From positions 2,656,001-2,720,000 of the forward strand of contig CBDDIJ010000003.1 of NCBI GenBank assembly GCA_965228855.1: a stretch of 64,000 nt of DNA. Reading direction: 5' to 3'. The notes beneath the pieces are model-generated. The model saw nothing but the letters and a program-made list of their open reading frames with translations, made no database searches and had not been told where the DNA came from. Each line of letters starts with the position of its first letter. Position 1 is the stretch's first letter. The DNA is from Candidatus Obscuribacterales bacterium. GTDB lineage: Bacteria > Cyanobacteriota > Vampirovibrionia > Obscuribacterales > Obscuribacteraceae. Shown here piece by piece: positions 7,785 through 24,100 of this stretch. Both the position numbers and the translations under genes were made by a program.

Positions 7785-8145
7785 CTTACGGATCCGACCT
7801 CCCAGCGGACTACGTTTGACTGGCAAGTGTGCAGGAGATGATCATCTTTGCATCGATTTCGGATCGGATTTCTGCACATTCGAACCTCAGTCACCGATTA
7901 GGCGAACCGCAGTCGCCGATTAAGCGAACCAAAGTCGCCAATTTCGGATTTCAGATGCCGGAATTTGCTAATCCGGCATTCTGACGTAGTCACTTACGAA
8001 TCCGACCTCTCAGCGGACTACGTTTGACTGGCAAGTGTGCAGGAGATGATCATCTTTGCATCGATTTCGGATCGGATTTCTGCACATTCGAACCTCAGTC
8101 GCCGATTAGGCGAACCAAAGTCGCCAATTAGTCGCCGATTAAGCG
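7745..8145. repeat. Near-identical ~200-bp direct repeat (7745-~7943 and 7954-~8129) with internal 22-bp tandem units
   Basis: Shared GATGCCGGAATTTG..AATCCGGCATTCTG.CGTAG.CACTTACG.ATCCGACCT..CAGCGGACTACGTTTGACTGGCAAGTGTGCAGGAGATGATCATCTTTGCATCG...; 22-bp unit CGAACCnnAGTCrCCGATTArG. Confidence 0.9.
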
Positions 8146-9491
8146 TTCACACCACGCTCGCGAGAGATGCGACGAACATCAGACTGAACTTTGCGGCGGT
8201 AATCGCCGTGGATGTTGCGCCTGTCTTTGCCCCATTTGCCTTCTTCGGGAATACTCTCGACTTGAAATTTCAAGTTCTTGACCGTGTGACCCATTCCGAT
8301 TGCATCCGATGCACCTTGCGAAAGATCAATGACGCGGCTGTGAACTTTCTCGCCGCTACCGTCCGGACGCTCAACTTTTCGGCCGGCGAAGGGACCATGA
8401 TCGGTAACGACCACGCGAATTTCTCTGCCGTTATCAGGGTTAGTCACTTTCAGCACTGTGCCGAAAGGGAATTCTCTGCTGGCTGCAGTCAACTCGTACT
8501 TGTTGAACGGCAGTCCTGATGCCGTTTCACGTCCACTCCTGTACATAGAGGTCGTCCCCTCGAATCGATCCCCTTCGTTGTATCTCTTCAGAAACGGGCT
8601 TTTGAAGGCGCCTTCGGGTTTCTCACGAGAGGGACTAGAGTCATCGCTTCTTGGTTCTGGATTGACAGTCGGCTCTGGATTTATATCCGGTCGCCGCTCA
8701 GGCTTAGGCGCAGGTTCCTCCCGACGACGCGGAGCCGGCTTTTCATCCCGCTCTCGGCGAGGACGCTTATGTTCGGGTTGAGCGCTTGGCTCGAATTCCG
8801 CCGAGATCAAACGCTCGCGAATGCGATTGCGAAGACCCTCGTCTTGAATTGAATTTAAAACCTTTTCGACGTTTTGTTGCGTCAAAAGCGCGTCTCCGCG
8901 GCTCAGAACGTTACCATCACCATGTTCAGGATTAGATTTCCATTCTGATTTCAGAGCATTCGTAAAAGCCTTCTTCTCCTCATGACTAAAACCGTCGCCG
9001 AGAAGACGCGATGCAACCTGGTGATAGCCTTCTTTTTTACGAACCTTCGCAGCATCGAGTGTGTTGGTCTTCAGTTCGGTTGCCACCGCTGCCGGTGCGT
9101 CCTCCGGCTTCACAACTTCCGGTGCGGCGGCCCGCGCATCTCCCGGATCGGCTTCTCTGGGCGGCGTGGCTTTCTTTCCGGGCTCATCGGTGGAACCGGC
9201 TATGACATTGCCTTTCTCATCAGTTACGGCGACATCCGGCAGCGTGATCCCATCTCTTTTCGCGAACGCACCCATGATGTCCACAGGTTTGCCAGCAGCA
9301 AGATCAGCGACCGAGTTCGAGTCGAATTCCGGCAGTTTTCCAGTCGGGCCGAGTTCGCAGCGAGGGTCGTATTTGAAAACATCTTTGACTTGAGCAGGGT
9401 CGGAAAGGTCGACTCCAAGATTGGTTGCGCCACTTTTGGGCGTGTTTACCTCAGCGACACCGTCGCTGTGCTTCTGCACTTCAGATCCCAT
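8139..9491 (-). CDS. RlpA-family (double-psi beta-barrel) lytic transglycosylase with LysM-like domain and disordered N-terminus
   Basis: C-terminal TASG..FNKYELTAASREFPFGTVLKVTN..VVVTDHGPF..RVIDLSQGA; central VRKKEGYHQVASRLLG...N..LSRGDAL is LysM-like; no signal peptide. Confidence 0.8.
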   Translation of the reverse strand: MGSEVQKHSDGVAEVNTPKSGATNLGVDLSDPAQVKDVFKYDPRCELGPTGKLPEFDSNSVADLAAGKPVDIMGAFAKRDGITLPDVAVTDEKGNVIAGSTDEPGKKATPPREADPGDARAAAPEVVKPEDAPAAVATELKTNTLDAAKVRKKEGYHQVASRLLGDGFSHEEKKAFTNALKSEWKSNPEHGDGNVLSRGDALLTQQNVEKVLNSIQDEGLRNRIRERLISAEFEPSAQPEHKRPRRERDEKPAPRRREEPAPKPERRPDINPEPTVNPEPRSDDSSPSREKPEGAFKSPFLKRYNEGDRFEGTTSMYRSGRETASGLPFNKYELTAASREFPFGTVLKVTNPDNGREIRVVVTDHGPFAGRKVERPDGSGEKVHSRVIDLSQGASDAIGMGHTVKNLKFQVESIPEEGKWGKDRRNIHGDYRRKVQSDVRRISRERGVNA

Positions 9492-9650: not shown

Positions 9651-9681
9651 CGAAAAACCCGGGCAACAGCCCAGGTTCTTC
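9651..9681 (-). terminator. Probable intrinsic terminator ending the rpoB-paralog operon
   Basis: Minus strand GAAGAACCTGGGC-TGTT-GCCCGGGTTTTTC followed by GTTTGTT. Confidence 0.65.
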
Positions 9682-9881: not shown

Positions 9882-10688
9882 CTACGCAGTGATTGCGTGC
9901 GGCGTAACCGGCACAACACCTGCTGCAGGAACGAACGTGCCTTCCGTAACATTGTCCGCCGTTTGTGGGAACAAGTTGAGAGTGCGACACTCGGCATTCT
10001 GCCATTGCGCGCTAATCATGCCCTTCTTGTAGAGTTCTTGGTGAGTTGCGAAGAAGCAATATTTTGCCAAACTCGAATTCGACATTTGAGCGATCTTCGC
10101 TTGCAGAGCGGCTTGCGACTCATCGTCTCTAGTGACGATTAGAAGCATTTCGCAGCCTGCCTCGACTATTGACTTTTCCAGACCTGCAAGAGTTGCATCA
10201 TCGCAATCAGGATTGTTCGCGATTCCGATATCATATGCGATACCATTGCATTGGAATGAAACCTTTGCGTCCAGGTGGAATTTCGCTTTGTCTTCGCCTT
10301 TCACCGTCGACCATTTGATGTCAGAGGCTTTGCCTTCGTTCTTCGCGATTAGATAAAGCATCCGGATGTTGGCGACTTCGAGGTGATGACGCTGCCAATT
10401 CGCATCGAAGCGATCGGTATCATCTTGCTCTTTGCCGGAGACGCTCTTAGCCATCGGAGACAGCATGTATACGAGCGGTTTGGTCGGCGTCGTCCACCAC
10501 GGCAACTTGGTTCCGTGACGGTGACAGAGAAGATAATCGAGATAAAAGAGTTTTCTGAGACGATCTCTGATCAAGACTGGTTTGTCTTCTTCAGTGATGA
10601 ACCACGAAATATGTTTTTCCAACAAAACTTCGTGCTCATCTATCAAATTGAAGATGAGATGGTCTCTGTCATTGAGCTGAATAGCCAT
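9882..10688 (-). CDS. Replication-relaxation (Replic_Relax)-like wHTH + degenerate PD-(D/E)xK protein
   Basis: Pattern LNDRD..IF.LI.EH..L...I ... RDRLRKL..L.YL ... P.VY.L ... RHHLEVANI resembles the family; the nuclease motif looks degenerate (HLDAKVSF..DIGI). Confidence 0.55.
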   Translation of the reverse strand: MAIQLNDRDHLIFNLIDEHEVLLEKHISWFITEEDKPVLIRDRLRKLFYLDYLLCHRHGTKLPWWTTPTKPLVYMLSPMAKSVSGKEQDDTDRFDANWQRHHLEVANIRMLYLIAKNEGKASDIKWSTVKGEDKAKFHLDAKVSFQCNGIAYDIGIANNPDCDDATLAGLEKSIVEAGCEMLLIVTRDDESQAALQAKIAQMSNSSLAKYCFFATHQELYKKGMISAQWQNAECRTLNLFPQTADNVTEGTFVPAAGVVPVTPHAITA

Positions 10689-10747
10689 TACTGCCTCGCT
10701 GGGGGTGTTTTTTTTCTGAAGGGTTTTACTGAGTGGTTTAAAAAAAA

Positions 10748-11515
10748 CTAGCGGGTAGGTACTTGTCCGCCAACGCGTTTGATTTCTTCGATAGAAGGAT
10801 TGCCTTTTACGTATTGCTGCAGAGCGTCTGTCTGCTGTCTCATGTGGACGTGATATTTCATTCTCAAATCAGTGTCCAGAGCATAAATCCGCTTGTTGAG
10901 TTCTTTCAAACCCTTCGCTCTGTTGTGAATCGAGTCCAACCCTTCTTCTAACTCCTCCATAGTTTTCGCTGCGGGTCTGGGTTTTATCAGGTCCTCGTAT
11001 ACCGATGCTGAGTCCGCGTACCAATCGGCTACTAAGTTGACATAGTCTCTTATGTCGGTGGTGCCGGGTGGGAACTCTAACTTTCGGAGAACACCAGCGA
11101 GATATCTGTACTTCACAGCAACTTTCTTCGCGGTGTCTGTCCACTGCTGAACGCGCTCTGCCTCTTGATTGAAACCGCGGGTGAGGATCGCGGATTCACC
11201 TTGAGTTTTGCTGTAGCAGAAAACTGTCTGGTCGAAATTTTCGAACCATCTAACTACAGGATCATTGGGATTTGACATCATCGCCAATGCGCCCTGTTTG
11301 CCGAGCGGGTTCTCGGGAACCTCGGTGGCTTTGCGAATTCTTTCTTTGGCGGCAGCCGCTTCGCGAGCACCGCTATCAGAGTTGAATTCATCGTGCATCG
11401 GCTGGGCAGCTACTGCTGCGAAACCGAATGAGCTTGCTGTCAGCACCACGGCTGCAACTAATGCTGCTGCCACCTTCTTAGTTTTGATGCTGTCGTTGCG
11501 TACGCTCATTTCCAC
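10748..11515 (-). CDS. Secreted helical hypothetical protein
   Basis: Signal peptide KTKKVAAALVAAVVLTASSFGFAAVAA; amphipathic helical body; co-oriented with the operon. Confidence 0.75.
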   Translation of the reverse strand: MEMSVRNDSIKTKKVAAALVAAVVLTASSFGFAAVAAQPMHDEFNSDSGAREAAAAKERIRKATEVPENPLGKQGALAMMSNPNDPVVRWFENFDQTVFCYSKTQGESAILTRGFNQEAERVQQWTDTAKKVAVKYRYLAGVLRKLEFPPGTTDIRDYVNLVADWYADSASVYEDLIKPRPAAKTMEELEEGLDSIHNRAKGLKELNKRIYALDTDLRMKYHVHMRQQTDALQQYVKGNPSIEEIKRVGGQVPTR

Positions 11516-11612
11516 TTTCCGTTTGTGCTTCCAGTCGACATACTTATTTGTATAACGAGTGTCGAACTTTATCTATGTTGTATTCACGTACTTGGCAGCG
11601 GTTTTCCGCTCT

Positions 11613-12578
11613 TTAATGTCCGTACAGTGGATCAACTGGTACGCCACTTCTGCCATTGCTACCGCTCGCTCCAGGTGTTGCCGGAGTATTCGGTCTCGAC
11701 ATGAATGCGTCTTGAACTTGTGATGGAGCCGGTCTCGATACGTTTTGCGCCGGCGTGTCGCTGTTGGCGTTATACGTATTCATTTGAACGATCTTCCAGA
11801 TAGTGTATGCGGAGAGGAGAAGCATCATCCCTGCGGCCGCGCCGAATACTCTGGAACCTCCATATGGATTACCCATGACCATCGAGTAGGCAGCCATCGA
11901 CATGAAGATCGTGGCACTGACTACACCGAGGATAACGAGATAACGCGAGAAGGTCCAAACCGTCGGAAGCGGATGGTCTGGAGTGTAGCCGTAAATGCTA
12001 TTGTGGTCCGGCTTCGGATAACCGTTGCCAGGCGCATCACTATCGATGAATTTGCGTCCGCCATTGTTGGTCGCTTGTGGATACGGAGCAAGAGCTTCGT
12101 TAATTTGTTCCATTTGCGCATCAGTCGCGGTAGCTTCAATTGTTTGTTCGCCCGAACGCATATTGACTCCGAGAATGCCCTCGATTTGACTGATGGCGTC
12201 GTTGCTCAAAGTGTCGGGACGAATTGTGGTGACCTGTCTTTCGCCGCGCGCTCCGTTGTGAAATACACGGACGGTGCTGCGGTCGCGACCTTCACCTGTT
12301 GGAAAACTGTGACCGGGAGTGGCATCAGAGGTTCCAGACGGAACATTCTGGGCGCCGCCCGCATCACCAGGGGTGACTGCAGGAGGCGCGGTGCCGTCGC
12401 CGACCGGTGGTGGCGCAGGTGGTGCGAACTGAGCATTAGCGGAGACCGAAAAACCGACGGAGAAGAGCACGGCAACCGCGAGGGCTAAAACGCTTCTCGT
12501 CAGGCTGTCCTTGTTTCTCATCTTCACTTGCATGTCCTTCGTGTCCTCGTAAAATAACTTGTTCGTTTCCTGTCTCAC
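11613..12578 (-). CDS. Secreted/membrane protein with C-terminal VirB2/TrbC-pilin-like two-helix hairpin (true start may be ATG 12533)
   Basis: Signal peptide, Pro-rich linker, then VWTFSRYLVILGVVSATIFMSMAAYSMVMGNPYGGSRVFGAAAGMMLLLSAYTIWKIV (TM-turn-TM, as in conjugative pilins). Confidence 0.6.
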   Translation of the reverse strand: MRQETNKLFYEDTKDMQVKMRNKDSLTRSVLALAVAVLFSVGFSVSANAQFAPPAPPPVGDGTAPPAVTPGDAGGAQNVPSGTSDATPGHSFPTGEGRDRSTVRVFHNGARGERQVTTIRPDTLSNDAISQIEGILGVNMRSGEQTIEATATDAQMEQINEALAPYPQATNNGGRKFIDSDAPGNGYPKPDHNSIYGYTPDHPLPTVWTFSRYLVILGVVSATIFMSMAAYSMVMGNPYGGSRVFGAAAGMMLLLSAYTIWKIVQMNTYNANSDTPAQNVSRPAPSQVQDAFMSRPNTPATPGASGSNGRSGVPVDPLYGH

Positions 12579-15500
12579 TTATCGGTCCGGAGTCGATCCA
12601 CCATCATTGCCGCTGGTGTCGGTTCCAACATGAACTTTTTGAGGTGCTCGTGTGATTGTCATCAGCTCTTGAGCGAGGTTCTGCAATTCACTCAGCGAAG
12701 GGAAGTCGAATAATGGATCTTCCTTGCTGTCGAGCTCCGGTGCTATCAGACTGGACAGCTCAGCAGACGGCGCCGGCTTGGTTTCTTCAACGATTGAGAT
12801 TTTAAGGTCATCATCGTCAGGTCCAAAGAAGCTGTCACCGAGGATGGTGTCAACGAAGTCGTCAACACTTTTTGTACCTGCGGGACTGACTTCTTGCTCA
12901 CTACCCTGGAGATTTGCTGGCTCATCAATGTCATCAATCAAAGACTCCTGTGTGCTGAGTTCGAACTGTGGTTTTCTTCCGTTTCTGCCATTTGTCATGG
13001 ATGTGATCATCGGCAGTCTAGGTGCTCGTACAACTGGCTCGTAGTCGCCACCCGGAATTTCGAGAATCTTCTGACCTTCCGCATTTTCGAGCATGTGAAC
13101 AGAGGACACTTGCAAGGTTTCTTCCAGTGTCGCGTCCTCCGGAAGCGCGATTCTCGAACAGGTTCTGTCGGGCACTGGTTCGAAACTGTCGACCACTCTT
13201 CCGAGCGTGACTTCAAGACCGAGACCGCGAATCTCGCAGCAGAGTCCGTCGAAAGCCGCGGTACGGCTGCCGTTTTGAACATTCTTGCCCTGCACCATAT
13301 CGGTGTAAGCCTGGTGTCTGCCCTGGATGTCGTCGGCTTTGATGGTCATCATCTCGTGAAGGATGTTTGCCGCACCATAAGCTTGAACAGCCCATACTTC
13401 CATTTCGCCCATGCGCTGACCGCCGTGGTTGGCTTTTCCGCCGACCGGCTGTTGAGTGACCGCGGCGTAAGGACCGCCGAGACCGCAACGAGCGTTGACT
13501 TTGTGGAGAACCAACTGGTTCAACTTGAGCATGTACTGGCGTCCGACAAGAACTGGTCTGTCGATTTTTTCACCGGTTCTGCCGTCGGTCAGAATGACTT
13601 TGCCGTCTTCGCCGAACCACTCGTAGCCTGGAGTCTTACGAACTTCAGCCAGTGCTTCCTTGACCAATCTATATGAAGCGTCATCACTGAGAGATTCATC
13701 GAATTGGTGAATGCGGTAATAGCGATTGAGAATATCGGAATAAAGTCCGAGCTGAGTGTCGAACACCTGACCGACGTTCATACGGGACGGTACGCCGAGG
13801 GAGTTGAGCACCAGGTCGACCGGAGTACCGTCGGGAAGGAAAGGCATATCTTCATCGGGAACAATGTTCGCGACGATACCTTTGTTTCCGTGACGTCCAG
13901 CCAGTTTGTCGCCAACTTCAACAGGGCACATTCTTGCGATCAGAACTTCGATTTCGCAGATCACACCAGCTTTCATTTCAGGTGTGGTTTCCGGCGTGAA
14001 GATGCGAACGTCGATTACGCGACCGCCCGAACCATGTGGAACTCTCAAGCTGCTATCGCCCATTTCTTCAGCGACCTTTCCGAAGATTGCCTGAAGCAAT
14101 TCTTCTTCGGAGCTCAATGCGCGATGCTCTTTAGGTGTCAGTTTCGAAACAAGCACATCGCCGGCTTCAACATAAGCGCCGATTTTTGCGATACCACGCT
14201 CATCGAGATGCTCGAGATCTTTGGATGAAACGTTGGGCAATTCCGGTGTGAGAATTTCAGGTCCTCTCAAAGTTTGATAAACGTTGAGCGAATGTTTCTC
14301 GATTTCGATGTGGGTGAGTTTTTGATCGCGAACGAGACCACGACGGACGACGATAGCATCCTCATAGTTGTATCCGCCCCACGGCATGAACGCGATTAAT
14401 AGGTTTCGGCCCAGAGCCAATTCACCTTTGTCGATGCCAGGTCCGTCTGCGATGATTTCGCCGGCTTCAACTTTTTGTCCGAGCGAAACCGATGGACGTT
14501 GGTCGAGAATCGTATTCTGGTTGGTGCGATCGAAACGAGTGAGATTGTAAGCGCGCTTCTCACCGGAAGCTTGCGTGATCTCAATGTTCTGTCCGCTCAC
14601 TTGAGTGACGGTGCCACCACGACGAGCAGTGATCGAATGTCCGGACGAACGAGCCACGATTTTTTCCATGCCCGTTCCAACACGTGGGCGCTCAGGGCGC
14701 ACCAGCGGTAGAGTTTGGCGCATCATCCCGCCACCCATCAGGGCGCGTCCCGTATCATCGTGCTCGAGGAATGGGATCAAACCTGAACCAACTGAGAGGA
14801 AACCTTGCGGCGTGATCCCCATCATGTCGACCTGCTCGGGAGTTACCTCGATGAGGCTTTCTCCGCGACGAGCTGCGACCAGCGGTCCGAGAATTTTGCC
14901 ATCAACACAACGAGTGTCAGGCGGTGCAAGAGTGTATTTCTTATCGTCGGATGGTGTGAGGAATTGCACTTCATCAAGCAAGTAGCCATTCTTCACTTTG
15001 CGATAAGGCACGGTCAAGAAACCATCATCATCGATACGGCAGTAGCTGGCGAGGTACGAAACCATACCGCAGTTCTTACCTTCAGGCGATTCTACGAGAC
15101 AGACCCGACCGATTTGCGACGGGTGAACGTCACGCATTTCGACAGGTGCTGCGTTCGGATCGATACCGCCAGGTCCGAAGGATGTGATTCTTCTTCTGTG
15201 CGAAAGTTCCGAAAGAGGATTTTGTTGATCGAGATACTGAACGAGCGGGTTGCCCGAGAAGTATTTAGTGATTGCGTTGGAGAAAGGTCTCGTGTCGATC
15301 AAATCGTTAGGACTGCCGATCTCTTCGTCTTCGTTGAGTTCGAGTTTCATCTTGATCGAACGGGTCATCTGACCGAGAGCCGGGCGAACAGCTTTGAGCA
15401 TTGTCTCGCCAACACCACGAAGGTGTCTGTTTTCCAGGGAGTCGATGTGATCGATAAAACCCATATCTGAAGGAAGACCGAGAAGATACTCGATTGCTGC

Positions 15501-16370
15501 CATCAAATCGGAAGGGCTGAGTTGCTTGTTCTCGCCATCCAAACCCAGTTTGCGGTTGAAACGGCTGCGTCCAAGTTTGCCGAGGCTATAACGACGCTTG
15601 TCGAACAGTTCACCAAGTGCGGTATTACCTGCACCGGAACCGCCGCCGCCGTCCGGCTTCCAGCCTCTGCCTACGACAGAGAGAGCTTCAGCCTGGGTGA
15701 TTTCTTTCCACTCGATGCGGCTGCGATCGAGAAGTTTTCCGAGACGTTTTTGGATATCTTGTGCGTCAAAGCCCATTGCGGTCAGAAGCGTGGTGCATGC
15801 AATCCACGAACGCTTCGGAAGTTTGACTCTGCACTTAGAACGGCTAGCTTTACCAGGAGTGACTTGCGGATCGATTACGAGTTCGAATGCGATAGGCGCG
15901 CCTTGCTCTGCAAGCATCAGACCTTTGTAGGTGTTGCCTGCCGGTTGGCTGAAGTAGATGCCGGGAGCGCGGACGAGTTGACCGAGGACAACGCGTTCCG
16001 ATCCGTTGATGACGAATGTACCGCGGTCGGTGATGACGGGCATGTCTGCGATGTAGCATTTCGACTTGCGCAGTTCACCAGTTACGGTATCACGCAACCA
16101 TGCTTCCATCATCAGACGACGAGCGTGAGTCATGTTGGTCTTTCGAGCTTGCTCTGCGGAATTCGGATATCCGGAATCCGGAGCATAGTCTTCGAACCAC
16201 CATTTGACTTTGCCATCTGGTCCGACAAAAGTAAGTTCAAATCTGGGGGAGAGGTCACTCGAGATGGGCGAGATTTCAGCGAAGAGATTACCAATTGTCT
16301 CTTCGAGGAAACGCCGATAAGAACGTCTCGGGAACTCTGCCAAATCTGGTGCTTGGAAAAAGAAACTCAT
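12579..16370 (-). CDS. rpoB: DNA-directed RNA polymerase subunit beta, divergent paralog with acidic C-terminal extension
   Basis: TDRGTFVINGSERV, DQQNPLSELSHRRR..GPGG, RDVHP..GRVC..ESPEG, LEHDD..RALMG, GYNYEDAI, GDKLAGRHGNKGIV, PSRMNVGQ, TQQPVGGKA..GGQRMGEMEVWA. Confidence 0.95.
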   Translation of the reverse strand: MSFFFQAPDLAEFPRRSYRRFLEETIGNLFAEISPISSDLSPRFELTFVGPDGKVKWWFEDYAPDSGYPNSAEQARKTNMTHARRLMMEAWLRDTVTGELRKSKCYIADMPVITDRGTFVINGSERVVLGQLVRAPGIYFSQPAGNTYKGLMLAEQGAPIAFELVIDPQVTPGKASRSKCRVKLPKRSWIACTTLLTAMGFDAQDIQKRLGKLLDRSRIEWKEITQAEALSVVGRGWKPDGGGGSGAGNTALGELFDKRRYSLGKLGRSRFNRKLGLDGENKQLSPSDLMAAIEYLLGLPSDMGFIDHIDSLENRHLRGVGETMLKAVRPALGQMTRSIKMKLELNEDEEIGSPNDLIDTRPFSNAITKYFSGNPLVQYLDQQNPLSELSHRRRITSFGPGGIDPNAAPVEMRDVHPSQIGRVCLVESPEGKNCGMVSYLASYCRIDDDGFLTVPYRKVKNGYLLDEVQFLTPSDDKKYTLAPPDTRCVDGKILGPLVAARRGESLIEVTPEQVDMMGITPQGFLSVGSGLIPFLEHDDTGRALMGGGMMRQTLPLVRPERPRVGTGMEKIVARSSGHSITARRGGTVTQVSGQNIEITQASGEKRAYNLTRFDRTNQNTILDQRPSVSLGQKVEAGEIIADGPGIDKGELALGRNLLIAFMPWGGYNYEDAIVVRRGLVRDQKLTHIEIEKHSLNVYQTLRGPEILTPELPNVSSKDLEHLDERGIAKIGAYVEAGDVLVSKLTPKEHRALSSEEELLQAIFGKVAEEMGDSSLRVPHGSGGRVIDVRIFTPETTPEMKAGVICEIEVLIARMCPVEVGDKLAGRHGNKGIVANIVPDEDMPFLPDGTPVDLVLNSLGVPSRMNVGQVFDTQLGLYSDILNRYYRIHQFDESLSDDASYRLVKEALAEVRKTPGYEWFGEDGKVILTDGRTGEKIDRPVLVGRQYMLKLNQLVLHKVNARCGLGGPYAAVTQQPVGGKANHGGQRMGEMEVWAVQAYGAANILHEMMTIKADDIQGRHQAYTDMVQGKNVQNGSRTAAFDGLCCEIRGLGLEVTLGRVVDSFEPVPDRTCSRIALPEDATLEETLQVSSVHMLENAEGQKILEIPGGDYEPVVRAPRLPMITSMTNGRNGRKPQFELSTQESLIDDIDEPANLQGSEQEVSPAGTKSVDDFVDTILGDSFFGPDDDDLKISIVEETKPAPSAELSSLIAPELDSKEDPLFDFPSLSELQNLAQELMTITRAPQKVHVGTDTSGNDGGSTPDR

Positions 16371-18808
16371 TAGTTGCCACCAGCCTTAGCGTCTTCCGTG
16401 TTGGTTGTAGTTCCGTCGTTATTAGACATTACTGACCTTTTGTGAGTAGCTAGAGCCCGCGCCAAGTCATCGGCGTAGGTCTTGATTCCTGGCTTCAATG
16501 CACTTGCTATTCTGAATTCGGTGACTGCTTCGCTTATTCTTCCTGCTGCCATCAGGTTGACGGCTAGTCGGTGGTGATTTGAAGCATTCTCCAGGTCTGT
16601 CGCTACCACATCTCTTAAAATTGCCACCGCCGCCATATGATCTTTTCGAGATTCGGCTTGGGTCACTTCGATGAGCTTTGGGTCTTCCTGAGTGGTTGCG
16701 GAACCCGTCCCAGTTGGAACATTTCCATTATCGTTACCGGGAGCCCCGCCGTAAATGGTGGAATCCACCTGTCCAGTGGGAATACTACGTACTCCATTTT
16801 CGGCTCCCATCGGCTGGGCATTTCCGGGTTGAACAGCTACCTGGTTCGGAGCAAAATTTTGTTGAGGTCGAAAACTGGCCGCAGTCGGAGCGACACCACC
16901 GCCAGGAGCTCCCTCGTAAACGCCTTTGTTCATCTGTGGCGGCACGCCGAAGTTGTTGGTCGCCATCTGCGACGCGCCGAAACTTTGCGGTGCAACACCA
17001 CCTTGCGGATTCACTCCAGTGGGCGCCATACCGTTTGGAACCATCCCGTTTGGAACCATACCGTTGGGAGCCACGCCTGTCATCATCGGAGATTGAACTG
17101 GTGCACGGTTCTGCATGTTCATGGGCGAACCCATCTGCATACCGGGTTGGGGCATCCCTTGCGGAGGCATACCCTGTTGCATCTGCTGCGGCATACCCAT
17201 GGGAGCGCCCATATGCATGCCTGGCGCCATGCCCTGCGACATGTTTTGAGGCATGCCCGTTGACATGTTTTGCGGCATTCCTTGTGGCATTTGCTGAGGT
17301 ATATGCTGCGGAGGACGCTGAGTCATTTGCGGCGGCATTGCGGCGCCGCCAGGTTTAGATCCTGAATTCTGCATCTCCTTCATACGGGCTGCAGCTTCTT
17401 TGTTTTTCTCCGGGTCTATCAGAACGCATGTGAGATAAGCCTGGTGTGCGCCTTTGTAATCGCCGACAGCTTCCAGACACTCTCCCAGAAGAAACTGATA
17501 ACGCGCATTGCGAGGCTCAATCATGACAGCCTGAGACACTTCAGCCAGTGCCTCTTTGCGCAGTCCTTGCGAGAACAAAGTCTCGGCGGCTTTCTTATGC
17601 TTCTCCGCTCGGCCGTGTTGATATGATTTTTGCAGACTGGCTCTGCCGTCGGCCAGTCCGGGATGGTTGGCATTTATGACTTCCAGTTTCTTATACTCAG
17701 CTTCGGCACCGGCATAGTCGCCAGTCAACTGGAGAGCGCCTGCGTACCCGAGGTGGAAGTCCGGGTTCAGCGGATTCTTCGCTACTTGCTTGCGCCATAT
17801 CTCAACCAGTTGAGAGCCGGCCAGAGCATCAGTGTCGTCGAGAATGACGGCTTTGCGAAGCAATGCAGCTGCGCCTGTTTCATCTTTCTGGAGTAGCTTC
17901 ATGATGCCGAGCTGACGTTGTGCCGGTCCGTAGTTGGGATCTTTGACTGCCGCCTGCTGGTAGCATTGCAACGCTTGCCCTGTCTGTCCCCAGCGGTACT
18001 GCAAGTCTCCGAATTTCACGTAAACTTTTGCCGACGGGTCAATCTCCATCGCCTGTTTGTACTCGACGTAAGCGCCTTCGAGGTCATTAGCGTTGATGAG
18101 CTGATCGCCTATGCCAAGTCGAGCATCTGCATCGACCGGGTCAATGCCTTGCTTCTCGAGCGCCGAAGAAAGTCCTTTGACCGCCCGAGCGTTGGAATAC
18201 TCAGCGAACAGCGCCTTTCTGTACATGGTTGCGGCGCCTGCCGAATCACCGACCTTCGCTTTGTAGTCGGCGAATGCTGTGCGCGCAGCGCTCAGATTCA
18301 GCTTGTACTGTTTGTTCGTGGGGTCGTACTGCACGGCTTTCTCGTGCATCGCGATGGCGTCGACCCATTTGCCTTGAGAACCAAAAGCGACACCCTGGTT
18401 GTTGAACTCAATGGCATCGGATTTGTATTTCGCATACGTCTCGGTACGCTTCTTGTCGGCTTTTTCACGAGCCGCTTCTGCCTCTTTCTTGGCGAGTTCA
18501 GCGTCTGCAGCCTTTTTGGCTTCGTCTTCTTTCTGCTGTTTCTCGAGATCACGATAATCAGGTCGTCTCTTGAAACGGCTGAGCGCAGGTGCATGGTACT
18601 GCGCGTCGTTTTCAAAATCTTTTTCACCGCGGCTCGACTGAGTGTCAGCGCTGGCGCGCGGTAGCGGTTTTGCGTTTAGCTTCGTAGCACTGGCTGCTTG
18701 AGAGCAAGAGAGTGAGAGAGTTAACGCCAGAAGAACGAGTGTGAGGGGTTTGCTATACATCAACATTGGAAAAAGAACGGGAGGTTTTGAGGGGTAGTTA
18801 GTCGGCAA
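16370..18808 (-). CDS. Secreted TPR-repeat protein with Gln/Met/Pro/Gly-rich low-complexity linker (start probably near ATG 18766)
   Basis: Signal peptide LTLVLLALTLSLSCSQAASA; multiple TPRs (AVQYDPTN, AMEIDPS, VKDPNYG, MIEPRNA); TAA overlaps the ATG of the rpoB paralog (TAATG). Confidence 0.85.
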   Translation of the reverse strand: MPTNYPSKPPVLFPMLMYSKPLTLVLLALTLSLSCSQAASATKLNAKPLPRASADTQSSRGEKDFENDAQYHAPALSRFKRRPDYRDLEKQQKEDEAKKAADAELAKKEAEAAREKADKKRTETYAKYKSDAIEFNNQGVAFGSQGKWVDAIAMHEKAVQYDPTNKQYKLNLSAARTAFADYKAKVGDSAGAATMYRKALFAEYSNARAVKGLSSALEKQGIDPVDADARLGIGDQLINANDLEGAYVEYKQAMEIDPSAKVYVKFGDLQYRWGQTGQALQCYQQAAVKDPNYGPAQRQLGIMKLLQKDETGAAALLRKAVILDDTDALAGSQLVEIWRKQVAKNPLNPDFHLGYAGALQLTGDYAGAEAEYKKLEVINANHPGLADGRASLQKSYQHGRAEKHKKAAETLFSQGLRKEALAEVSQAVMIEPRNARYQFLLGECLEAVGDYKGAHQAYLTCVLIDPEKNKEAAARMKEMQNSGSKPGGAAMPPQMTQRPPQHIPQQMPQGMPQNMSTGMPQNMSQGMAPGMHMGAPMGMPQQMQQGMPPQGMPQPGMQMGSPMNMQNRAPVQSPMMTGVAPNGMVPNGMVPNGMAPTGVNPQGGVAPQSFGASQMATNNFGVPPQMNKGVYEGAPGGGVAPTAASFRPQQNFAPNQVAVQPGNAQPMGAENGVRSIPTGQVDSTIYGGAPGNDNGNVPTGTGSATTQEDPKLIEVTQAESRKDHMAAVAILRDVVATDLENASNHHRLAVNLMAAGRISEAVTEFRIASALKPGIKTYADDLARALATHKRSVMSNNDGTTTNTEDAKAGGN

Positions 18809-19007
18809 ACTCGCAACCTCGCTCGGTTCGCCGAATGTGAGCCCAGCTTAAGGTTATACGACGGCATAGTCCATTGGGGGATATCCCACCCCCTTCGTAA
18901 ATCTCCCACAATTCACATTAAAATTGCGAAGCCGCAACGCAAGTGAATTCCGACAGACGTTTTCAAAACCGAAAAATTTTACGGACGATTCGCCCACCTT
19001 ATAAATG

Positions 19008-20198
19008 TTATTCATCGTCGCTTTCTTCTGAATCATAGTCATCGTCATCTTCACGATAGCCGCCCAGTCCGACGCCGACCAGTTTCGTCTCGCCTTTCAC
19101 CTTCTTGAGCTCTTGTGGCGGATAGCCGCAGTATTCTTCCATGTAGTTGGCGAGGTCAGTTGAATGCGTTGTCAGCCAAATCTGAGTGGTTTCAGAAGCG
19201 GTGGCTAGCAATCTGGCGAGTGGTTCATACAAACTTGGATGAATACTTGTTTCCGGTTCATTTATTGCAAGAAGAGACGGCGGTGTCTTGCTGAAGATAG
19301 CGGCCAGCAAACAGAGATACTGGAGGGTGCCGTCGGAAAGTTCGTGCGCGTCGAGCGGTCGTTCCAGACCGGGCATGGTCATTCGCAATTTCAAGCCCGC
19401 GTTGGATAAACCTATCTGCAAGTCGCTTTCGGGAAACGCATCTTTTAGTGCTTTAAAAAGCTTCGGTGCGTCGCCGTACTCGATGATGGTTGCAAGAGCT
19501 GAAACGAAATCGCTGCCGTCATGCGCCATAATGTCGGTGCGAACGGCAATTTGAGGTCGGCGCAATGGCGAACTCTTGTCTGTTCTGAAGTGATGGTAAA
19601 AACGCCAGTTGAGAAGTTCGAGCCGGAGCATCGACAACTCCGGGAATTTAAGCGGATCTCTGACGCCGGTAAAAATCGACTCGTTGGGCGCGACGCGCAT
19701 CGAGTAATCGCTGTTCTGTTTTTCAACAACATCGCGAACGCTTACCTCCATACCCTTGCGTTTCAAAAGCATTGACTTGGAGCCATTTTTCAAACGAAAC
19801 AGTTTCTCACTTTTAATTTCGACATCATTTCGAAATATCGTGTTGCCGGCGCCGTGAACTAAAACGCGACCCATCTCGGCATAACCCGTTCGATAATCGC
19901 CAGACACGTAGCCACACTCGAGATCGTATTGCAGGTCATCGACCTTTACCGAAAGTGTCATTGAAATTGGGTCTTTCTTGGAATAAGCGCCGCACCACAA
20001 TGACGAGTCCATGCCGCCTTCTTCACCTATAGAGCGTGCAAACTGACCGCTGGCGATGGTCGACATAAGATATAGTGCGCGATAGAGATTGCTTTTGCCG
20101 CAACCGTTCGGTCCGACAAAAACGTTGACTGGATTGAGTTTCAACCAGATGTCTTTGACCGAGCGATAGTGTTTGATTTGAAAATCTTTGAGCGCCAC
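19008..20198 (-). CDS. ABC/SMC-like AAA ATPase (AAA_21/COG4637-like), copy 2
   Basis: Walker A GPNGCGKSN, signature LSDGT, Walker B AINEPETSIHP, H-loop TTHS. Confidence 0.9.
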   Translation of the reverse strand: MALKDFQIKHYRSVKDIWLKLNPVNVFVGPNGCGKSNLYRALYLMSTIASGQFARSIGEEGGMDSSLWCGAYSKKDPISMTLSVKVDDLQYDLECGYVSGDYRTGYAEMGRVLVHGAGNTIFRNDVEIKSEKLFRLKNGSKSMLLKRKGMEVSVRDVVEKQNSDYSMRVAPNESIFTGVRDPLKFPELSMLRLELLNWRFYHHFRTDKSSPLRRPQIAVRTDIMAHDGSDFVSALATIIEYGDAPKLFKALKDAFPESDLQIGLSNAGLKLRMTMPGLERPLDAHELSDGTLQYLCLLAAIFSKTPPSLLAINEPETSIHPSLYEPLARLLATASETTQIWLTTHSTDLANYMEEYCGYPPQELKKVKGETKLVGVGLGGYREDDDDYDSEESDDE

Positions 20199-20201
20199 CG
20201 G

Positions 20202-21401
20202 CTAGTCCTCCGGCTCGTTTTTCTTCAACGCGGCACGATAAGCCCGTACCGCAGCCGCGTCGTCATCCTCGACTTCGGCTCTGGCACTGCGAACCTCTTC
20301 GCCCCTGATCACAGTTTCACCTGCAACTTTTTCCAGCTCGATAATTTTGCAATTGCCCTGCGCCTTAACGTGTTGAGCCAATTCGGAGGAATGAGTTGTG
20401 ATAAGCAGTTGCGAGCGCCTTGATGCTGCAACTATCAATTCAGCAAGCGGCTGAGCGAGGTCCACATGCATGCTGGTCTCCGGTTCGTTGAAAACCATAA
20501 AGGATGCGGGTCTCGGTGTCAGCAATGCAGCAAGCAAACACAGGTATTGCAAAGTTCCATCGGACAATTCCCGAGCGTGAAGAGGACGAGCAAGTCCGGG
20601 ATATTCCATGTATAAGCACAATTCACCATCATCTTCAACGATTGAAACAGACGCACCCGGAAATGCCCGGTCGACAAATTGATCGAACTCTTGCGCACTG
20701 CCTATGGTGCGAATCGTGGCTACCACAGCAGCAAGATCGCTGGCATCATGGCTCAAAATCGGCGTCATCGAGGCGAGTTGGTTTCTCCTCACAGGTGATT
20801 GCAAGTCGGTTCTAAAATCGTGGTAGAAGCGCCAGTCGGCAAAAAGCATGCGAAGAGAAGAGAGCTCAGGAAATTTTTCTGGCTCTCGAAGTTCAGACAA
20901 GACGCTTTCGTTCTTCAACAACTTCACCGGGTAGTCGACAGTACGTCCCTCCAGATTCTTTGCTCGAACAGAATTTCCTTTCCTGCTAAACAGTGCGATT
21001 GGTTTTTCTCCAGTCAACTCAACGGTCTCGACTTTGATATCCGGGTCGTCTTTGAACAGGCGCAGCCCCTCGCCGAATTGACCGTCGCTCGGACGCTCGC
21101 TAATAGCGATTCTTCCAAATTCCATTTCGTATTGGAGCTTATCAAATTTGATCGCGAGACGCGTTCTATGGTCATCTGAAACATGGCGATGTCCCGCCCA
21201 TGAAAGTGAGGGGACGCCCCCTTCCTCGGCGACTCTTCGAGCAAATTGCCCATGAGCAGCGCTTCCTAGAAGTTGAATAGCTTGGTAGATGTTGCTTTTG
21301 CCACAACCGTTCGGCCCGACCAGAATAGTTATGCCGCCGAGTTTCAGTTGAAACTCCCGCAAAGAGCGATAACCGCTGATTTCAATTTCGCGAATTTGCA
21401 T
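20202..21401 (-). CDS. ABC/SMC-like AAA ATPase (AAA_21/COG4637-like), copy 1
   Basis: GPNGCGKSN, WRFYHDFRTD, LSDGTLQYLCLLAA, FNEPETSMH, TTHS. Confidence 0.9.
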   Translation of the reverse strand: MQIREIEISGYRSLREFQLKLGGITILVGPNGCGKSNIYQAIQLLGSAAHGQFARRVAEEGGVPSLSWAGHRHVSDDHRTRLAIKFDKLQYEMEFGRIAISERPSDGQFGEGLRLFKDDPDIKVETVELTGEKPIALFSRKGNSVRAKNLEGRTVDYPVKLLKNESVLSELREPEKFPELSSLRMLFADWRFYHDFRTDLQSPVRRNQLASMTPILSHDASDLAAVVATIRTIGSAQEFDQFVDRAFPGASVSIVEDDGELCLYMEYPGLARPLHARELSDGTLQYLCLLAALLTPRPASFMVFNEPETSMHVDLAQPLAELIVAASRRSQLLITTHSSELAQHVKAQGNCKIIELEKVAGETVIRGEEVRSARAEVEDDDAAAVRAYRAALKKNEPED

Positions 21402-21439
21402 CCAAGATACTCGCAGTTGTCGGCTTTGTGGAACAGAAC

Positions 21440-22870
21440 CTAGGTCCCGTCGTGTTCGGCGGGTCCGGTAATCATGTTGAATCGCGGCGTGTATAGGTGA
21501 TTGTCACTCACGATACACGCGGACAAATTATTATGCACTCCCGGATTGGCTAGAGCCATGAGACCGAACGCGAAAAGCAGGATGGATACAAGCGATACGA
21601 AAGCCTTAAACATTACTCCGATATCACTATAAGTCACAAAGAAAATTGATGCGAAAAAAACAACCATCATCGAACAAGGAATTACTTTCATCAGGTGCCG
21701 AATTGAAGATCGACGAAACGACACGCGCGCGCCGTCAACATCGGTGACTCGAAGCCTGAACACGCTCTTTCCGAGCGTAGACTCCTTAGGCGAGCTCTCC
21801 ATGAGTGCGTGATACATCCAGTTAATCGTCACCACTACTAGTACCGCAAGGGTAAAGCCAAGTTCCGGATTCGACAGAGGCGCAGCCAGAAGGCTGGTTG
21901 AAAACGGCTGAGTCGTAAGTTTCGCAACTATCAGCGGAATGCTCAAGATTGCCAATGCAGGGGCAAAGCAGACGAACAGAGCGTCCAGAAATCCGATACC
22001 GAACGTCGCTAAAATGAGCGGTTGCCATTGACTCATCTCGAACGGCGCGTGCGAAGCGTTTGCACCAGATGCGATATCAATGGCATTGGCTACGACGAAC
22101 AGAAAAAACGCGCTTAAACAGCCTACTACAAAGCCATCGATTACCTGAGCTATTATTCGTTGAGGCGGCCGCGCAGGCAACCACTCGCTCATTTGCGCGC
22201 GGTGAGCCTGCAACTGGAGCGAGGTCATTCGATCCTTTTCGGACATATCGTCCAGACGAAGTTTTTCATAGACCTTGCTACGCTCAGCGAAAAGCTCGAT
22301 CATCTCGGATTTAGATGCCATGCCGATCGCCGTCGTGTAATCGATGATCGCCTTGTCGTCTTGCCCGATCAAATGATAGGCGCGCGCCCTGCGTCGCACT
22401 AGTTCAACTAACAACCCACGATCTAATTTCGGTCCGATGGTTGCAGTGGCAAACTCGATAATCTTGTCGTAGTCGCCCAACTCACGGTAGGCTTCGACGA
22501 GTCGAAAACAATCGTAGTAATACCAGCGCCGAGACGGATCGATTTCGATGGCTCGCTCAATATCGGCGGCCACTCCAGTGAAGTTTCCTAACTCGAAAAA
22601 TGCCCAGGCGCGAAGAGCAAAAGCGCCGGAATCGGCCGGAGCCAGATCGATTTTCGCGCTGCAATCGTCGACGGCACCATCAAGGTCTTCCATGCACAGT
22701 CTTGCGTATGCTCGCAATCCGTAGTTGAACGCTTCGCCAGGGTCCATCTCAATTCCGCGCGTCATGCACTTCTCCGCTTCCTTGAAACGCAAAAGCACGA
22801 CGTTGATCAAACCGCCAACTCCGTATAAGTATGCTCGTAAACTTCGTAACCCCTGCCGCATAAAATCCAC
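21440..22870 (-). CDS. TPR + RDD-family membrane protein
   Basis: N-terminal TPRs; RDD motifs RIIAQVID, TLGKSVFRLRVTDVDGAR..RH, HNNLS. Confidence 0.8.
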   Translation of the reverse strand: MDFMRQGLRSLRAYLYGVGGLINVVLLRFKEAEKCMTRGIEMDPGEAFNYGLRAYARLCMEDLDGAVDDCSAKIDLAPADSGAFALRAWAFFELGNFTGVAADIERAIEIDPSRRWYYYDCFRLVEAYRELGDYDKIIEFATATIGPKLDRGLLVELVRRRARAYHLIGQDDKAIIDYTTAIGMASKSEMIELFAERSKVYEKLRLDDMSEKDRMTSLQLQAHRAQMSEWLPARPPQRIIAQVIDGFVVGCLSAFFLFVVANAIDIASGANASHAPFEMSQWQPLILATFGIGFLDALFVCFAPALAILSIPLIVAKLTTQPFSTSLLAAPLSNPELGFTLAVLVVVTINWMYHALMESSPKESTLGKSVFRLRVTDVDGARVSFRRSSIRHLMKVIPCSMMVVFFASIFFVTYSDIGVMFKAFVSLVSILLFAFGLMALANPGVHNNLSACIVSDNHLYTPRFNMITGPAEHDGT

Positions 22871-23236: not shown

Positions 23237-24100
23237 TTGGACCCAGGATTACAACCAATGTCAAGCGGACCACCTCAGAGACCTCCTTCAGTCTTTAGAC
23301 CACGAACGGTCCTGTGTGAGCGGCACGAACTCATCCGATTCGGCTTGAGACGCGTGGTATCAGAAGTAGTTGAGATCGTCGGTGAAGCATCGGACGGAAT
23401 GGCCGCGACAGAACTGATTCGTCGCATGCGCCCGGATTTCATCATAATGGACGTCGACCTCGACGTTCTCAACGGCGTAGAAGTCTGCCGCAGAGTAGCG
23501 CAAGAATTGCCGAACTCACACGTCCTGGTTCTCACAGATTCGTATCACGCCACCAAGTATCACAACCAGCTGATTCGCGCAGGCTCGCGGGGATTCTGCC
23601 TTAAGAGTTCAGGTCCGAGAACCTTGTTCGAAGCGATTGAACAGGTCACGCGCGGATTGCCCTACTGTGATCCCAAGATTACGCAACTGGTCAAGCAACA
23701 ACCGACGACCAGTATGCCGAACAGCAATCTCACCGATCGCGAAATCGAAGTTCTCATTCGTCTTGACTTGAGAAACAAGGAAATTGCAGAGGAGCTTGAC
23801 ATGAAGCTCCGCACTGTAGAAAAACACATCGAGTGCATCCTGGCAAAGCTCAAGGTTCCGACTAGAACGGCAGCAGCACTTAAAGCCGTGCAATTGGGAT
23901 ACGTTCTATTACCCAAGATGCCGGGTCGCGATCCGGTCACAGGCATCAGCCACGAGCAAACAGTGGCAGAGCTGCAAGCGGAGCTGGCAATTGCCAACGA
24001 GCACCTGAAGGCACTCTTGAGACAGAATGAACTTCTGAAAGAAGCTTTGAACGACAAATTAAGACGTCCTCAGCAGCCACCGCGACCGGAAAACGAGTAA
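23237..24100 (+). CDS. NarL/LuxR-family response regulator with C-terminal coiled coil
   Basis: REC (IIMDVDL, GFCLK), LuxR HTH (LTDREIEVL..NKEIAEEL..RTVEKHI..KL), heptad tail. Confidence 0.9.
   Translation: MDPGLQPMSSGPPQRPPSVFRPRTVLCERHELIRFGLRRVVSEVVEIVGEASDGMAATELIRRMRPDFIIMDVDLDVLNGVEVCRRVAQELPNSHVLVLTDSYHATKYHNQLIRAGSRGFCLKSSGPRTLFEAIEQVTRGLPYCDPKITQLVKQQPTTSMPNSNLTDREIEVLIRLDLRNKEIAEELDMKLRTVEKHIECILAKLKVPTRTAAALKAVQLGYVLLPKMPGRDPVTGISHEQTVAELQAELAIANEHLKALLRQNELLKEALNDKLRRPQQPPRPENE

Follow-up and report, generated by a model that had tools for sequence, protein, structure and literature searches.

This study concerns a five-gene operon of Candidatus Obscuribacterales bacterium (NCBI GenBank assembly GCA_965228855.1, contig CBDDIJ010000003.1), located within positions 2,656,001 to 2,720,000 of the forward strand (this whole stretch of 64,000 nucleotides is referred to as the window, and positions given without a contig label are those of the window). 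The second gene of the operon, here named rpoB*, encodes a diverged paralog of the RNA polymerase beta subunit (beta*), and the three genes that follow it are named g3, g4, and g5. We report that rpoB* is an intact, family-wide second beta subunit gene, and that its operon shares a conserved promoter motif with a separate chromosomal cluster resembling a type IV secretion system (T4SS). The source genome comprises 8.2 Mb in 6 contigs (95% complete, 5.8% contamination; contig labels begin with C). The five open reading frames (ORFs) are all on the minus strand, positioned as in an earlier prediction that a model had made from the sequence of the window (the original prediction). For comparison, 80 related loci were fetched via g5, of which the 64 with at least 9 kb of upstream sequence are called long loci. 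The features of the region are as follows.

18845..18909, minus strand: promoter, with tandem dyads at 18874-18909 followed by -35-like and -10-like elements, seen in conserved upstream regions
16370..18808, minus strand: TPR-repeat protein of 812 amino acids (aa), with TPR Pfam domains and a hydrophobic, signal-like N-terminal segment; present in 64/64 long loci
12579..16370, minus strand: rpoB*, diverged RNA polymerase beta paralog of 1263 aa, with a cyanobacterial-type core of ~1060 aa and an acidic tail
11613..12578, minus strand: g3, with a signal-like segment and a C-terminal hydrophobic hairpin; present in 63/64 long loci
10748..11515, minus strand: g4, putative helical-bundle protein with a signal-like segment; present in 64/64 long loci
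9882..10688, minus strand: g5, with a winged-helix-like N-terminus and a PD-(D/E)xK-like fold according to profile, hhalign, and structural model
9652..9681, minus strand: hairpin of 13 pairs with a short T-rich tail, ~200 nt after g5, a possible operon terminator
23237..24100, plus strand: NarL/LuxR-type response regulator (Response_reg and GerE domains), divergent from the operon

The original prediction had described a full-length rpoB homolog whose ATG overlaps the stop codon of the TPR gene, with neither rpoC/rpoC1 nor ribosomal protein genes next to it, and these points were confirmed. The protein matches six Rpb2 Pfam domains, five of them above the cut-off, and scores 1008 bits against the rpoB equivalog model TIGR02013 (cut-off 801); its best PDB match is the beta subunit 8syi_C, and databases name the product only as a beta subunit. 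The overlap reads TAATG in the source sequence and measures 1 or 4 nt in 58 of 63 loci, and no rpoC or ribosomal protein operon adjoins rpoB*. That this is a second, specialised beta subunit, as had been proposed, is borne out by the canonical rpoB on contig C5, which is followed by the only rpoC1 and rpoC2 of the genome and whose product is 42.6% identical to beta*. Both beta subunits pass TIGR02013 and both have a long acidic C-terminal tail. GC content differs among the large contigs (C2, 0.529; C3, 0.504; C5, 0.507), and the two rpoB genes lie on those near 0.50.

The distribution of rpoB* was examined in 251 genomes of the class that are at least 85% complete, including 78 genomes of the family to which the source genome itself belongs, the main one of the Obscuribacterales, which are cyanobacterial relatives that lack photosynthesis. 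At least 73 of these 78 possess rpoB* (69-100% identity among the matches listed), and the five without a listed match are fragmented assemblies. Among the 173 genomes outside the family, 167 have one match, one has two, and five have none, with none of the matches listed exceeding 46% identity. A separate search of the sister family revealed rpoB* and g5 in one of three genomes, on short contigs whose low GC content fits that family, and no match to either gene in the other two. In a phylum-wide sample of 301 genomes, 288 of the 291 with a match have one and three have two, and in a protein-database search with rpoB* the identity drops from 62-92% straight to 33-43%. Contamination or mis-assembly was rejected as an explanation, given that rpoB* is present family-wide and also in two single-contig genomes (G004 and G037). 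Two genomes are irregular: G019 has two rpoB* matches (8% contamination), and G040 has split ORFs in several operon genes as well as three NusA_N matches. The gene order is also strictly conserved, all five genes being found in order in 63 of the 64 long loci, and the remaining one lacking g3. In one genus (g16; loci L014, L021, and L092), g3 is absent from the operon and the relaxase is devoid of the E-x-D motif discussed below.

Phylogenetic analyses place the rpoB* paralogs in one clade on a very long stem, from 1.24 (FastTree) to 3.4 (C20 model) changes per site. The gene is neither the only rpoB of its genome nor one of normal branch length, and with a canonical copy elsewhere, no adjacent rpoC, and this long stem it is not the housekeeping rpoB. 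In free trees, the clade falls outside all canonical Cyanobacteriota RpoB sequences. By approximately unbiased (AU) tests, a placement with Obscuribacterales RpoB, corresponding to a duplication within the order, is not rejected (p 0.22), and neither is a control placement with the oxygenic cyanobacteria (p 0.235), so that no donor of rpoB* is singled out. Site counts on its origin are not decisive, and a shared insertion near E. coli position 70-80 weakly favours an origin within Vampirovibrionia. Pairwise distances of rpoB* and of canonical rpoB are strongly correlated across 15 genomes (Mantel r 0.90), as expected for vertical descent. The ratio of nonsynonymous to synonymous substitution rates (dN/dS) of rpoB* is 0.01-0.09 in unsaturated pairs and 1.4-1.9 times that of the canonical gene in four genome pairs. 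Considering that no internal stops occur within the rpoB* matches and that dN/dS is below 0.1, we rejected the possibility of a pseudogene or relaxed relic.

Residue changes were examined in an alignment (E. coli numbering) of 68 rpoB* paralogs and 72 other RpoBs, obtained from 92 and 60 ORFs by dropping duplicates and ORFs shorter than 1050 aa and adding 14 outgroup sequences, E. coli among them. The other RpoBs have 315 columns that are at least 97% invariant; rpoB* keeps 211 of these, has switched to another fixed residue at 64, and is relaxed at 40. Fixed switches make up the smallest fraction in 1040-1235 (0.11-0.17) and the largest in 446-575 and 1296-1342 (0.39-0.42). The residues R678, Q688, E813, D814, K1065, K1073, R1106, R1269, E1272, D1084, and G1215 are kept in 68/68 paralogs. 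The first nine belong to the catalytic side of the subunit, and D1084 and G1215 function in alpha binding. A Metal B pair of the E813/D814 type is described in PMC2605557, and H1237, K1065, and K1073 are reported to contact the primer phosphate (bioRxiv 2021.04.06.438613). Among E813, D814, K1065, K1073, R1106, and H1237, five are invariant and H1237 is replaced by Q in 68/68.

Changes occur at other functional sites. Five of the nine non-template strand contacts named in bioRxiv 2023.06.26.546588 have switched (W183P, D199P, R371K, R470Q, and R542A), as have two positions of the fork loop (R540P and G544P) and N684 (N684G). In E. coli, the substitution W183A lowers the half-life of open complexes five-fold and does not slow elongation (PMC4499132). 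At the flap tip, which is contacted by sigma region 4 (PMC5101437), L901, L902, and F906 are kept and the changes are K900E, R903Q, E908K, K909V, and R911E. The pocket of the core recognition element (CRE) is preserved in 68/68 (R151, D446, and R451), and R394 and R473 are kept as well. The C-terminal stretch 1320-1328 is changed (P1320T, E1321A, S1322A, K1324D, V1325G, and R1328C); this segment of beta packs on beta-prime. It should be noted that H1237Q occurs together with R542S in two outgroup RpoBs, one of them from a cluster named Armatimonadota RpoB, and therefore single changes prove little and it is the overall pattern that counts.

The region of the rifamycin pocket has also switched in 68/68 paralogs (Q510P, S512V, F514Y, S531T, L533F, and I572V), which might suggest an immunity or resistance subunit, produced along with the secretion machine, that allows transcription to survive a toxin, antibiotic, or phage factor hitting the normal beta. 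Actinomycete rpoB duplicates are linked to resistance (PMC5431353), and the predicted co-regulation of beta* with a secretion system, described below, would fit self-protection. This explanation nevertheless appears improbable to us because H526, D516, Q513, and R529 of the pocket are kept, because the 64 fixed switches extend throughout the protein and reach well outside the pocket of any single inhibitor, and because near-universal retention and strict synteny are unlike the patchy occurrence of resistance alleles.

We could not detect a second beta-prime in the source genome by phmmer (--max) over 20,630 ORFs, a DxDGD scan, or family searches, nor a second alpha or NusG, the rpoC1, rpoA, and nusG genes being single in five of five genomes. 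The divergent rpoC paralogs for which a search had been suggested were accordingly not found in the source genome, and a hidden beta-prime partner was rejected after the ORF, motif, and family searches. With a single set of partner subunits, beta*, if it works, must share them. It could then be supposed that beta*, being poor in catalysis, acts as a competitor that ties up alpha or beta-prime and thereby shuts down housekeeping transcription during mating or dormancy: there is only one partner set to compete for, and H1237Q, N684G, R540P, and W183P could cripple initiation. We regard this as rather improbable, since the Metal B and phosphate-binding residues (the set from R678 through E1272) are invariant in the 68 paralogs, the switched residues are fixed and not drifting (64 fixed versus 40 relaxed), and H1237Q with R542S also occurs in the two outgroup RpoBs. 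The related suggestion of a decoy or transferred subunit, made in the original prediction, is likewise disfavoured by the kept catalytic residues and by purifying selection close to that of a housekeeping gene. As for initiation factors, the source genome has 19 sigma region-2 matches. A sigma-70-type protein at C3:444439-445389 (L189) seems to end before region 4 and, at the threshold applied, was detected in only one of 22 further genomes of the family.

The operon partners of rpoB* had been labelled pilin-like (g3), secreted (g4), and Replic_Relax-like (g5), and these labels fared differently. Hydrophobic N-terminal segments, on which the term secreted rests, are present in the TPR protein, g3, and g4, and g5 is the only partner of rpoB* without such an export segment. 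For g4, neither a known family nor a Foldseek match was found; its model consists entirely of helices (predicted local distance difference test score, 76), and two distant paralogs occur in the source genome. Pilin similarity of g3 is a lead only. Its C-terminal hydrophobic hairpin is conserved, and its N-terminal Pro/Gly motif is common to two secreted proteins of the T4SS-like cluster, which its profile matches (C3:3063701, E 2.5e-4; C3:3064757, E 5e-5). The match to the 138-aa pilin-like protein of that cluster is weak (E 0.073), no significant Pfam match was obtained for 16 members, Atlas scores to TrbC/T4SS_pilin and integrative and conjugative element (ICE) membrane clusters are 0.78-0.81 (below 0.9), and at 300-570 aa g3 is longer than pilins.

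The relaxase similarity of g5 is better supported. Although g5 has no Pfam match of its own, remaining below the cut-off, a search of 1.8 billion clusters with its profile collected no more than 29, the last of them being two Replic_Relax (PF13814) proteins (E 1e-5 and 3e-4), and hhalign aligned it with the true chromosomal Replic_Relax relaxase of the source genome over 241 columns (probability 82%, E 1e-5). The g5 model resembles restriction-like nucleases with modest scores (Z up to 6.8), and its winged-helix-like N-terminus is nearly invariant. The chromosomal relaxase displays D...E-x-D in 12 of 15 loci; in g5, residues of the type G-I-I-N replace E-x-D in 18 of 18 aligned sequences, and the first D is retained in 13 of 18. 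We take PF13814 Replic_Relax to correspond to MOB_C. Thus, g5 is likely an inactive (nuclease-dead) paralog of the Replic_Relax (MOB_C-type) relaxase of the order. According to PMC12857230, MOB_C relaxases are PD-(D/E)xK enzymes with an N-terminal winged helix. The flanking genes of rpoB* are thus conserved in relatives and include one with relaxase similarity. On the other hand, the description of a secretion/conjugation-like operon does not hold for the operon itself, which contains neither ATPase nor coupling protein and whose relaxase-like gene lacks the nuclease motif.

Such genes are found elsewhere on the chromosome. At C3 3.043-3.066 Mb (23 kb), the source genome contains a T4SS-like cluster encoding secreted proteins, the 138-aa pilin-like protein, a 1899-aa protein, a DUF2225-like protein, a small membrane protein, a VirB4-like ATPase, a 215-aa protein, a VirD4-like coupling protein, and the relaxase. 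Domain matches (P-loop_TraG, T4SS-DNA_transf, and Replic_Relax) identify the VirB4 ATPase, the coupling protein, and the relaxase; labels such as VirB2, B3, B6, and B8 would be our own reading, with no Pfam or NCBIfam support. Of 14 relatives whose loci were retrieved through the relaxase, 8 have the same order from VirB4 to the relaxase; in others, the relaxase is detached. The relaxase was detected in 38/40 genomes of the source family, 2/2 of the sister family, and 0/128 others, and VirD4 in 34/35, 2/2, and 0/113, respectively. The cluster is mostly single-copy and near-universal in the order and, judged by these features, is a core chromosomal conjugation-like system and not a recent mobile element. 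Several further observations concern these genes. The 138-aa pilin-like gene exists in near-identical copies (C3:3060042-3060458 and 3063138-3063560), and its orthologs in relatives are 81-96% identical, an unusual degree of conservation for a protein of the cell surface. Another VirB4-like cluster, which includes a giant protein and a DUF2225-like gene, lies at C2 1.99-2.01 Mb (L172), where the genome scan described below found no tandem motif, and a third TraG P-loop match is located near 56 kb of the 182-kb contig C4. Both relaxases of the sister family look degenerate too.

The link between the operon and this cluster lies in their promoters. Upstream of the TPR gene, two dyads of the type TGGGA-N4-TCCCA, 20 bp apart, are present in 46 of 52 distinct regions (>45 bits), those of the source genome being of the type TGGGA-N4-(T/C)(A/C)C(G/C)A, and are followed by a -35-like hexamer and, after 17 bp, a TAAGCT-like -10 element. 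A matrix trained solely on 44 such sites from relatives recovered 8 tandem sites in the 8.2-Mb genome, namely that of the operon itself, two in the 23-kb cluster, and five elsewhere; in raw matches, the genome had 11 and block-shuffled genomes had 3 and 0. In addition, one strong dyad on its own lies before the 1899-aa gene of the cluster. Among relatives, the matrix found 19 tandem sites in cluster loci (160 kb; 7 of the 8 loci have them), compared with none downstream of g5 (543 kb) and none in loci containing only the relaxase (95 kb). Other loci (260 kb) gave 2 sites, of which one is the same cluster site and the other a match chosen beforehand. The sites precede the same genes across genera and are followed by similar -35/-10 elements. 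These results bear out the originally proposed tie to type-IV-secretion-like genes, through a promoter motif shared with a separate VirB4/VirD4/relaxase cluster. Strong tandem motifs at C5:110583 and C5:380248 precede a GAF histidine kinase gene (~390 nt away) and an unannotated 530-aa gene, respectively, which are possible further members of the regulon.

A response-regulator-family gene is situated divergently upstream of the operon in 19 of 21 loci. The NarL/LuxR-type regulator was found in 35/35 genomes of the source family, 1/2 of the sister family, and 0/113 other genomes of the class, and its helix-turn-helix is almost invariant in 12 aligned copies. It likely binds the tandem motif, with g5 as the alternative candidate. 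The NreC site, a look-alike of the motif, is described in the paper only as a "GC-rich palindromic sequence". In the source genome, three inserted genes separate the regulator from the operon: a tandem pair of AAA_21 ATPase genes plus one TPR/RDD gene (19008-22870, minus strand), of which the ATPase pair is restricted to the source genome among the 21 loci and the RDD gene is present in 4. At the other end of the operon, a terminator had been proposed at 9651-9681. The hairpin exists (9652-9681), but this class of site is not enriched in the region (12 versus 11.2 in shuffles), and a hairpin with a T-run follows g5 in only 17 of 58 relatives by a crude test without a control. Beyond it, an RlpA-like DPBB_1 gene (8139-9491, minus strand) was rejected as a member of the operon because it was found in just 2 of 64 related loci.

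A regulon in common with a VirB4/VirD4 system, together with the long, variable acidic tail, raises the question of whether the T4SS might deliver beta* to a recipient or prey cell, where it would act. This is highly improbable in our view: the canonical beta of the order also ends in such a tail, a subunit of 1263 aa would need to match the core of another organism, and beta* shows conservation by vertical descent with dN/dS below 0.1 and no arms race.

Another possibility is that beta* forms a sigma-independent polymerase that transcribes or primes single-stranded transfer DNA, to which the dead relaxase g5 would bring it. The changes at W183, D199, R470, R542, and the flap tip would remove contacts with the double-stranded bubble and with sigma region 4, a relaxase paralog is encoded in the same operon, the cluster supplies VirD4 and a relaxase with D...E-x-D in most loci, and the subunits of plant Pol IV/V, where PMC2605557 suggests alternative templates, diverge likewise. 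However, the CRE pocket for the non-template +2 base is kept in all 68 paralogs, and R394 and R473 are kept too, suggesting that the template is a bubble, and we consider this possibility unlikely. The same grade applies to the broader picture of Obscuribacterales with two core polymerases, a bacterial counterpart to the duplication behind plant Pol IV/V. In this picture, the NarL-type regulator would switch on both a domesticated chromosomal conjugation machine and beta*, and the dead relaxase, in place of a sigma factor, would guide beta* to transcribe or prime the DNA of the transfer programme.

The explanation that we tentatively prefer, without holding it to be established, is that beta* takes the place of the housekeeping subunit in the common alpha2-gamma-beta-prime core, giving a second, probably active polymerase that may be made with, and serve, the conjugation-like machine. 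It is based on the wide distribution, purifying selection, kept catalytic residues, single partner set, and shared motif, and on the co-distribution of the relaxase, VirD4, and the regulator with the source family. The operon and the VirB4/VirD4/relaxase cluster share the conserved tandem promoter motif; the NarL-type regulator would bind it and switch on both through ordinary sigma-70-type promoters. beta* would then assemble with the only alpha and beta-prime subunits found, and the changes in its flap tip, protrusion, fork loop, and contacts with the non-template strand would alter the initiation factor and promoters used, so that the beta* polymerase might transcribe genes of the transfer programme that form a later or a separate set. 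More speculatively, g5 could be the DNA-binding factor that targets beta*.

Several observations weigh against this preferred explanation. The C-terminal segment facing beta-prime has changed with no matching beta-prime paralog, and hence assembly of beta* is not assured. Its enzyme could be weak, considering that the primer-phosphate contact H1237 is Q throughout and that W183, whose replacement by alanine destabilises E. coli open complexes five-fold, is changed too. We found no dedicated sigma factor: two odd candidates of the 19 were checked, and neither is family-wide (1/22 and 7/22 genomes). The cluster promoters resemble ordinary activator-dependent sigma-70 promoters, so that no special polymerase is needed for them. 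Furthermore, two genomes of the sister family (88% and 94% complete) have VirD4 and a relaxase homolog but no match to rpoB* or g5, and evidence from co-distribution is weak within a single order, where genes are shared through kinship.

To our knowledge, bacteria are taught to have one core polymerase whose programmes are changed by sigma swaps, the known exceptions being some actinomycetes with resistant, near-identical copies of rpoB. If the preferred explanation is true, a second beta that is ancient, strongly conserved, and present family-wide would mean programme control by the swap of a core subunit. rpoB* is also a natural experiment on 64 positions that are otherwise invariant in RpoB, testable in vitro without culturing, and the linked cluster suggests that the whole order keeps a domesticated chromosomal DNA-transfer system. 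Because both copies pass the rpoB marker model, the paralog may inflate contamination estimates or enter marker trees of these genomes.

We found no description of an rpoB paralog or duplication in Obscuribacterales/Melainabacteria, or of a T4SS in Obscuribacterales, in the literature searched, which did not include subscription journals and supplements, and the beta* operon with its shared regulon matches no known system that we found. The T4SS of Vampirovibrio chlorellavorus is described in PMC4451040 as T-type, partly plasmid-borne, and flagged as alien, and no orthologs of the cluster VirD4 or relaxase were detected in the other class genomes searched. As in the conjugative T4SSs of ICEs and plasmids, a VirB4-like ATPase, a VirD4-like coupling protein, and a relaxase are encoded in one cluster here; unlike those, it lies on the chromosome, mostly as a single copy, and occurs in nearly all genomes of the order, with the relaxase detached in some genera. 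MOB_C relaxases such as TraX of pAD1 and MobC of CloDF13 share with g5 the N-terminal winged helix and the PD-(D/E)xK domain (PMC12857230), whereas g5 lacks the second acidic motif, stays below the Pfam cut-off, and lies beside a polymerase gene and not VirD4. rpoB(R) of Nonomuraea gerenzanensis and rpoB2 of Nocardia farcinica likewise represent two rpoB genes with one set of other subunits. In Nonomuraea, rpoB(R) shifts global gene expression and differs from rpoB(S) by five substitutions, including H526N and S531Y, and a six-residue deletion (PMC5431353). In contrast, rpoB* is only 43% identical to the housekeeping copy, carries 64 fixed switches, belongs to a five-gene operon of its own, is near-universal in its family, keeps H526, and has T at S531 in 68/68; on identity (42.6%) and on H526N/S531Y, it was rejected as a duplicate of the rpoB(R)/rpoB2 type. 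By analogy only, it is closer to the subunit NRPD2/NRPE2 of plant Pol IV and Pol V, a duplicated core subunit in which the Metal B glutamate-aspartate pair is kept and many residues near nucleic-acid contacts, invariant elsewhere, are replaced (PMC2605557), although those polymerases are eukaryotic, have duplicated largest subunits too, and act in RNA silencing, whereas here beta alone is duplicated and the process is conjugation-like.

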